From IMG/VR virus record IMGVR_UViG_3300005573_000055, positions 91,524 through 155,523 of that record: 64,000 bases of DNA. The stretch is one strand, 5' to 3'. Both the position numbers and the translations under genes were made by a program. Below the pieces are notes generated by a model. That model was not told where the DNA came from. It worked only from the letters and a program-made list of their open reading frames with translations, and ran no database searches. The stretch comes from a virus. Below are positions 18,345 through 18,830 of this stretch, one piece after another. The first letter of the stretch is position 1; every line of letters starts with the position of its first letter.

Positions 18345-18830
18345 TTCCTTAAAATCCGCCACCGATTCCCCTCCCTTGGTGCGGGTTGCTGCATCAACAG
18401 GCACCTAAATCCTGTTGACGCCCTGCGGGTTGAGGGTGGGTGACTACACGACTCGTCTTCCACCCTGAGGGGCGCCTTAGGTGGGCCACTCTATCCGTCA
18501 AAGCCTATTATCTAGCAGCCCAGTTATCTACAGTATACCGCTAGTAACAGGCACATGCTAGACGGATAGCCATCTTCACTCAGCTATAATCGTGAAGATG
18601 GGAGCCCGTTCGGCTTCGTAACCACAAGAGAATGTCCAGAGTATAACTGTATTAAAGTTATAGCCCTTTAATACAGCCTTCTGAATATGGACATTCTCCC
18701 TTTTGTCCGCCTACCCGGCGCAGAGAAAGTTAAGTCGTGTTAGCTATCTCTGCTACCGCTATGTCGGCAGACAAAAAATACATAGCTCCGTTGTTTAAAG
18801 TGGGATACGGCACCACTGTTAGACCCTTTT
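18345..18830 (-). ncRNA. putative large structured RNA 2 (~490 nt)
   Basis: At least 7 long stems with G.U pairs favouring the minus strand, and several loop-loop/pseudoknot complementarities. Confidence 0.68.

Follow-up and report, generated by a model that had tools for sequence, protein, structure and literature searches.

The RNA and its fold

The window analysed here is a stretch of 64,000 nucleotides of phage DNA, the last 64 kb of the 155.5-kb IMG/VR record IMGVR_UViG_3300005573_000055. Two gene blocks, one on the minus strand to the left of 18337 and the other on the plus strand to the right of 19384, are separated in it by a 1-kb gap without genes. The minus strand of this gap very probably encodes a genuine, conserved structured RNA (18354-18817), and no open reading frame (ORF) of note crosses the RNA region on either strand. 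Directly 3' of the RNA lies the gene for a moxR-type AAA+ ATPase of 243 amino acids (17606-18337, minus strand; Pfam AAA_5 at 1e-20, bpMoxR at 7.5e-8). Next after moxR is the gene for a 406-residue protein with a DxSGS motif of the metal-ion-dependent adhesion site (MIDAS) type, a probable vWA partner (16339-17559, minus strand). The plus-strand neighbours of the gap are LuxR-type and helix-turn-helix (HTH) regulators.

Folded as RNA, the minus strand at 18345-18900 has a minimum free energy of -225 kcal/mol, against -174 ± 6.7 kcal/mol for dinucleotide shuffles (z = -7.6), and none of 100 shuffles folded as well. The conserved fold runs from 18817 to 18354, and a Shine-Dalgarno (SD) sequence with a mini-ORF at its 5' edge (18852-18819) belongs to the RNA. 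The RNA measures about 470 nt in the window and about 470-580 nt across the members of its family, with about a dozen helices. A first-pass annotation of this stretch had drawn eight stems here. All eight are present on the minus strand, each in its proposed place, and all recur in an RNAalifold consensus of three homologs (consensus helices 4, 5, 7, 8, 12, 13, 16 and 17), where they keep pairing through substitutions. Its coordinates for a contact between distant loops, 18733-18740 with 18446-18453, were exact. The structure contains 38 G-U cells, and reading the opposite strand lowers pairing to 89%, which together indicate that the RNA strand is the moxR strand.

All the elements of the fold described here are on the minus strand. 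At the 5' end is an H-type pseudoknot (18788-18817), in which stem 1 pairs 18813-18817 with 18799-18803 and the loop at 18806-18809 pairs with 18788-18791 over an A-rich linker. The 5' domain that follows is an extended hairpin (18701-18776) with an outer helix (18766-18776/18701-18711) and an inner helix (18747-18753/18720-18726), and its loop holds the 5' strand of a long-range loop-loop helix that we call kiss B. The middle domain (18628-18698) has its outer helix at 18688-18698/18628-18638 and its inner helix at 18666-18676/18647-18657, and the loop holds the 5' strand of a second such helix, kiss A. The 3' strand of kiss A is in the loop of the next hairpin (18570-18601; stem 18592-18601/18570-18579). 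The central domain (18491-18569) is formed by a closing helix, 18561-18569/18491-18499, and encloses a variable extended hairpin; a conserved single-stranded 8-mer and U3 junctions adjoin the closing helix, and the junction motif is also found in two of the distant relatives described below, L080 and L081. The 3' third is made of three hairpins: one with a 20-nt loop that carries the 3' strand of kiss B (18433-18466; stem 18460-18466/18433-18439), a penultimate hairpin of 10-11 bp with a 9-nt loop (18392-18420), and a last hairpin with a purine-rich 14-nt loop (18356-18384), which is helix 5 of a five-sequence alignment of the 3' domain.

Relatives, covariation and loop-loop contacts

A DNA search of phage GenBank records found no homolog. 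Relatives were reached by way of the ATPase and vWA proteins, traced in IMG/VR and large protein collections, and are named here by the numbers of the loci fetched around related proteins of either kind. L003 (= L011, L082) and L077 (= L078) are close, with ATPases 73% and 75% identical to the window's. The ATPases of L080 and L081 are 60% and 56% identical, and L323 and L328 (= L329) were reached through distant vWA relatives of 22-26% identity. Including the window, the family comprises seven distinct sequences in five lineages, all metagenomic, and the vWA proteins of the RNA-bearing loci are 22-40% identical. In all seven loci the RNA is on the same strand as, and directly upstream of, a moxR gene, a vWA gene or both. 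Orthologs of moxR lie downstream of it in L003, L077, L080, L081 and L328, and in L323 the vWA gene comes right after it. The L328 and L081 copies lie inside co-directional gene arrays, not in a divergent control region. The upstream regions of four relatives, folded alone, gave z scores of -4.7, -5.0, -10.5 and -8.8.

The pairing was assessed most fully in the window, L003 and L077. RNAalifold found 128 pairs in these three sequences, 34 of them with compensatory changes, and adding the pseudoknot and the two loop-loop helices to this consensus gave a final set of 146 pairs. Standard pairs make up 96.3% of its 436 cells, whereas sliding the partners leaves 35-49%. For these three close members, 37 of the 146 pairs are double-changed, against 2-6 in the slid controls, and no shuffle out of 500 equalled any of these values. 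Six of the double changes are in consensus helix 8 of the middle domain. In the hairpin that carries the 3' strand of kiss A, 7 of the 10 pairs show double changes.

A covariance model of the 3' third, R1, was built from the window, L003 and L077 only. It recovered L081 at full length (58.5 bits, E about 1e-12) and, with the filters off, L080 (42.3 bits, E about 1e-8, or 9e-9). Across the five sequences pairing extends to 98.1% of cells and double changes to 24 of 31 pairs, against 1-5 when slid, in an alignment that is fitted to the model and therefore somewhat flattering; the hairpin with the 3' strand of kiss B accounts for 8 double-changed pairs out of 10, and the penultimate hairpin for 9 out of 11. 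A model of the middle third, R2, placed L080 and L323 at the expected positions with E of about 0.15 and did not find L081. The sequence of the middle third has diverged past easy recognition.

Contacts between loops were sought by folding each member, pruning weak terminal stems and scoring the complementarity of hairpin loops, with a reporting threshold of 6 bp. Two contacts already drawn in the first-pass annotation are backed by covariation across lineages. Kiss A links the middle-domain hairpin and the next hairpin through their loops. It has 7 bp in the window (18658-18664/18583-18589, minus strand), in L077 (2673-2679/2750-2756), in L323 (153-159/221-227) and in L328 (1762-1768/1830-1836), and 8 bp in L080 (671-678/735-742); L081 has four G-C pairs only, read by eye and under the threshold. 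Kiss B joins a loop of the 5' domain to a loop of the 3' domain about 290 nt away. Its 8 bp in the window (18733-18740/18446-18453, minus strand) are invariant in L003 and L077, L081 has 8 bp with three double changes (997-1004/1297-1304), and there are 7 bp in L080 (601-607/848-854), L323 (89-95/419-425) and L328 (1679-1685/1928-1934). Both kisses thus recur at equivalent loops, with differing and complementary sequences, in the window, L081, L080, L323 and L328. Each match was rare in loop shuffles (0-23 of 2000), and R1 independently placed the kiss B partner of L080 beneath that of the window.

Two other tertiary matches from the same annotation are not supported across the family. The 7-bp match of 18476-18482 with the loop at 18402-18410 is confined to this phage: L003 and L077 have the invariant loop and a different 5' partner. 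The 7-bp pair that flanks 18766-18776 does not vary among the three close sequences, and nothing clearly equivalent to it is seen in the distant ones. The pseudoknot has the same topology and the same place in all seven members, with entirely different sequences in L081, L080, L323 and L328, and its helices 1 and 2 hold one double change each in the close group. Taken singly it is not rare, appearing in 1-104 of 300 shuffles per member.

Wider searches added no further members. An nhmmer screen of 320 fetched loci returned known relatives only; exact-motif scans of IMG/VR and gapped-motif scans of metagenome and viral contigs gave, among the matches listed, GC-rich noise; and scans of IMG/VR and GTDB genomes with the vWA alignment found nothing new beyond L330. 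This last locus belongs to a 110-kb phage with a related moxR-vWA pair, and has a t-element and a terminator before moxR in place of the RNA. Three apparently cellular contigs carry related AAA-vWA pairs. In two of them, L324 and L326, the upstream region is structured (z -3 to -5) and lacks the pseudoknot and two-kiss architecture, and L325 has no space for the RNA. The absence of the RNA from L324-L326 and L330 indicates that it marks one branch of moxR-vWA operons, not all. Among public sequencing runs the sequence was found in two hot-spring DNA metagenomes only, and in no RNA run. In a 154-kb relative, IMGVR_UViG_3300035661_000012 (L321/L322), the vWA gene is split over the two contig ends, which indicates the assembly of a circular or circularly permuted genome.

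The class of the RNA was not recognised in the first-pass annotation, and no Rfam 15 family reached its gathering threshold anywhere in the window, be it GOLLD, ROOL, OLE, raiA or HEARO/omega RNA, group I or II introns, RNase P or tmRNA, or self-cleaving ribozymes or riboswitches. At E up to 10, the region 18200-19400 produced two chance matches only, to miRNA and snoRNA models and far below threshold. Rfam found nothing over the RNA in four homologous loci, and ARAGORN called no tRNA, tmRNA or tRNA-like gene. A suggested kinship with another proposed RNA, 'RNA 1', was not supported. Neither a self-search of the 155-kb genome nor R1, which includes the word the two were said to share, run over the whole window, found a second copy, and that G-rich word is not conserved in any homolog. 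The RNA is large and tertiary-structured, and its family is previously undescribed.

The edges of the RNA and the genes around it

The mini-ORF at the 5' edge of the RNA has a strong SD (18845-18852, minus strand), placed 5-8 nt before the ATG. It consists of six codons and a stop (18819-18839, minus strand) and ends 2 nt before the pseudoknot. SD, ATG and mini-ORF are present in all six members that have the 5' flank (the window, L003, L077, L081, L080 and L328). Its length is 3, 3, 5 and 13 codons in L003, L077, L080 and L081 as a group, and 19 codons, read from the sequence, in L328. Between the stop and the pseudoknot stem there are 2-21 nt; the exception is L328, whose ORF continues through the pseudoknot to a stop beyond the stem. 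The peptide is not conserved, being unrelated between members in both length and sequence. In mono-shuffles an SD-ATG arrangement of this kind arises by chance in 1.3-7% per 80-nt flank, and it is seen in four independent lineages. As every flanked member has it, ribosomes would be expected to load at the 5' edge of the RNA, and the RNA would be part of the message.

At the 3' edge, the last hairpin of the window ends 18 nt before the ATG of moxR, and neither a promoter nor a terminator consensus was predicted between the RNA and moxR. There is no U-run after the last hairpin in L003, L077 or L081. In L080 the moxR ATG is inside the helix of the last hairpin, and by eye neither L080 nor L081 has a clear SD before the moxR start. 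Only L328, among the members, has a terminator-like hairpin. Its region 2010-2160, between the RNA and moxR, combines this with a second SD, a mini-ORF of eight codons and further hairpins, a possible attenuator module that the window's subfamily lacks. The L081 unit comes after a terminator hairpin and a promoter-like module that is repeated, which suggests that the RNA there begins the moxR-vWA transcription unit. The module, about 40 nt long and ending in SD and ATG, occurs before a 58-residue ORF (600-640) and before the mini-ORF and RNA (872-912), with the strong terminator hairpin (about 815-840) between the copies, and is a candidate phage promoter-plus-RBS (ribosome-binding site) cassette.

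What the first-pass annotation called a non-coding RNA is indeed a large structured RNA. The label 'non-coding' is too strong for an element that starts with an RBS and a mini-ORF, has no detectable terminator before moxR and is, as judged from its sequence setting, physically the leader of the phage moxR-vWA operons. We infer its transcription, its co-transcription with moxR and any regulatory effect. It had also been placed at the head of an early arm. It does head the leftward gene block, and what it goes with is the moxR-vWA pair, not an early arm.

Other features lie further upstream. Armless tRNA-like t-elements, with an acceptor stem, a small hairpin and a canonical T-arm, are found about 75 nt upstream of the SD in L003 (~3405-3450), L077 (~2395-2445) and L080 (~270-310), and also before moxR in the 110-kb phage without the big RNA (L330, ~2200-2250). 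They are likely to be sites at which RNase P/Z processing fixes where the message begins. In the window, about 250 nt between the RNA and the divergent LuxR-type gene (18985-19240) are nearly all purine on the minus strand, with a plus-strand GC skew down to -0.79 and an AT skew of -0.68, and contain degenerate repeats of 10-26 nt rich in SD-like words. If transcribed with the RNA, this stretch would form a long unstructured 5' tail. L003 and L077 have at least four copies of a unit of about 28 nt at this position instead. Between the polypurine stretch and the RNA is a long G-C-rich hairpin (18914-18985, minus strand) with a 9-bp G/C stem and an interior of about 25 nt. It is not a standard terminator on either strand, because the U-run precedes it and does not follow it, and a terminator scan found a weak overlapping site only.

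MoxR ATPases normally come with a vWA partner, and the 406-residue protein is most likely that partner. It had no Pfam hit itself, and a sequence profile search of the PDB gave no match to solved vWA proteins. Its relatives have sub-threshold matches to VWA_CoxE, and aligned with them its motif residues D270, S272 and S274 are invariant. The AlphaFold model contains an alpha/beta domain at residues 207-405, whose structural matches to the Ro60 vWA and the MDN1 MIDAS domains are tied at Z 6-7; the whole model gave generic Rossmann-like matches only in Foldseek. The protein also contains a basic segment that is long and disordered, and a conserved motif lies at residues 74-132. This motif region is disordered, with a near-invariant H-G-G that is kept even in distant cellular relatives.

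Further down the leftward block, on the minus strand, are genes for a stand-alone homolog of the Csx3 ring nuclease (9323-9607; Pfam 1.5e-11), a partial SAVED domain protein (10866-11357; Pfam 3e-7) and a radical-SAM protein (11413-12261; Pfam 1.7e-10), a combination that fits a counter-defence island.

What the RNA may do

The reading we favour, at somewhat under an even chance, is that the RNA is a cis-acting leader of the moxR-vWA message. The two long-range loop-loop helices lock the SD and mini-ORF, the pseudoknot and the helices into one compact body. Ribosomes would load at the mini-ORF and then terminate on, or run into, the 5' pseudoknot, and in this way translation of the mini-ORF might be tied to how the message folds, how stable it is or how it is translated further downstream. 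The leaders closest to this picture are those with leader peptides (trp, pyrBI, erm, and mgtA/mgtCBR with mgtL and mgtP), in which a short translated ORF with its own RBS contacts a regulatory structure. Such leaders are 100-300 nt long and use mutually exclusive hairpins with a terminator or a masked SD, whereas the window, L003 and L077 show no such switch, and the RNA described here is a single large tertiary body with a peptide that is not conserved.

Several observations weigh against a cis-acting leader. Being roughly twice as large as any known cis-regulatory leader, and having two conserved long-range tertiary helices, the RNA resembles ribozymes and the RNAs of ribonucleoproteins (RNPs) more. 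The family is small, with its seven sequences in five lineages. No expression platform, whether a terminator/antiterminator or an SD-sequestering helix, is evident in the window, L003 or L077, where the RBS of moxR is in the unpaired A-rich spacer after the last hairpin. A model in which the 5' edge masks the 3' edge was rejected, as the duplex between mini-ORF and moxR start was no better in energy than in shuffles (z -1.2 to +0.9). As regards a leader-peptide attenuator, a short ORF with its own RBS is present in the leader, no terminator or antiterminator hairpins are predicted before moxR, and conserved codons or a conserved peptide are absent; as the peptides are not conserved, a classical codon-sensing attenuator is unlikely. 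As regards a riboswitch or translational operator, there is a conserved fold, and the start codon is in the last helix in L080 only.

The RNA might instead be a partner to the MoxR-vWA machine, serving as scaffold, cofactor or client. Made as part of the one transcript, it would afterwards be bound or remodelled by the ATPase with its vWA adaptor. We think this unlikely on balance. The analogy is with the pairing of OLE RNA and the Oap proteins, of omega RNA and IscB, or of Y RNA and Ro60, which contains a vWA domain. The RNA is associated with the gene pair itself across a deep divergence, with vWA proteins 22-40% identical and the L323 RNA placed before vWA, and RNP RNAs and ribozymes typically have such a size and one compact tertiary fold. 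The conserved single-stranded motifs at the central junction and in the last loop could be protein-binding sites, and the basic segment and 74-132 motif of the vWA protein could contribute. However, no RNA-binding domain was recognised in either protein, the N-terminal vWA motif is shared by cellular relatives in whose loci no such RNA is seen, and the 110-kb phage has a related moxR-vWA pair without it. A 5' RBS and mini-ORF would not be expected of a pure RNP RNA. Our literature search found no paper linking MoxR-vWA with a non-coding RNA.

The comparisons with known RNPs are similarly mixed. OLE RNA (RF01071) is also large (about 600 nt), intricate and embedded in an operon, co-transcribed with flanking genes, encoded beside the genes of its bound proteins and found in extremophile hosts. 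There is no match to it in sequence or structure, and its partners are the membrane proteins OapA, OapB and OapC, whereas our RNA is phage-borne, has a mini-ORF at its 5' edge and has a MoxR ATPase and a vWA protein as candidate partners. The RNA is somewhat OLE-like and somewhat like the leader-peptide leaders, and is a member of neither group. Ro60 (TROVE plus vWA) and Y RNA in the Thermus phage phiLo (PMC12135203; PDB 9l5y) likewise place a vWA/MIDAS protein beside a structured RNA in a thermophile phage. The vWA-like domain of the 406-residue protein aligns with the phiLo Ro60 vWA at Z 6.9 over 121 residues, a score tied with those of unrelated Rossmann-like folds. Y RNAs are about 100-200 nt long with a tRNA-like module, whereas the window RNA has 470 nt and another architecture; Pfam found no TROVE domain in the neighbouring proteins, and Rfam no Y RNA or YrlA match.

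A bolder proposal gives the MoxR-vWA AAA+ remodelling machine the RNA as a functional subunit or as a dedicated client, or sees in the RNA a new large ribozyme that the machine matures; the translated mini-ORF would then time or protect the folding of the RNA. This too we regard as doubtful. Viral MoxR-vWA pairs are known as assembly chaperones in Acidianus two-tailed virus and in jumbo phages (PMC7824862).

It seems rather improbable that the RNA is autonomous, either a self-assembling ornate RNA like ROOL and GOLLD or a new ribozyme, for example for processing an early transcript, with its place before moxR incidental or for co-expression only. The complexity and the conserved long-range helices are what such an RNA would have, three phages with varying flanking helices share all 8 bp of kiss B unchanged, and these phages use RNA-processing elements at gene boundaries, as the t-elements of L003, L077 and L080 illustrate. 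ROOL and GOLLD (PMC12286853; cryo-EM cages) are also often borne by phages or prophages, several hundred nucleotides long, and rich in helices and long-range or kissing contacts. They are, however, usually near tRNA genes and not tied to one protein operon, whereas the RNA here is never away from moxR or vWA in seven loci, has no second copy in the 155-kb genome and, even at E up to 10, gave no hit to GOLLD, ROOL, OLE, self-cleaving ribozymes, group I or II introns or RNase P. Its kissing loops appear, from the covariation, to be intramolecular; palindromic loops of the kind used in homo-oligomers were not noticed, in the course of work that made no systematic search for them.

An element that works as DNA, for example an origin of replication, arrays of operators or iterons or a site of recombination, would suit a 1-kb gene-free divergent region beside HTH and LuxR-type regulators with repeats and a polypurine tract just upstream, but is very improbable given that the compensatory changes keep pairing and not sequence, that the 38 G-U cells denote a strand-specific structure, that nothing at the DNA level would explain covariation between loops 290 nt apart and that the L328 and L081 copies are outside divergent control regions. 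A small share of the probability, below that of an autonomous RNA, is left for readings beyond those listed.

Bacterial and phage RNAs of more than 400 nt with a conserved tertiary fold are rare. To our knowledge about ten classes have been described, and every class we know of is a ribozyme, the core of an RNP or a self-assembling particle. The secondary structure of the present RNA is unusually well supported for so few sequences, and its two covarying long-range loop-loop helices are ready targets for mutation and rescue. As the phages come from hot springs, the RNA should suit structural work. It is tied specifically to MoxR-vWA, a pair that is widespread in large phages and archaeal viruses. 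If the role of the RNA is to regulate the operon, it would rank as the largest such leader and would show which signal controls the chaperone. If it binds the proteins, it would be an RNA substrate for MoxR-vWA, and if it is a subunit or dedicated client of the machine, this would be the first RNA-containing MoxR system.

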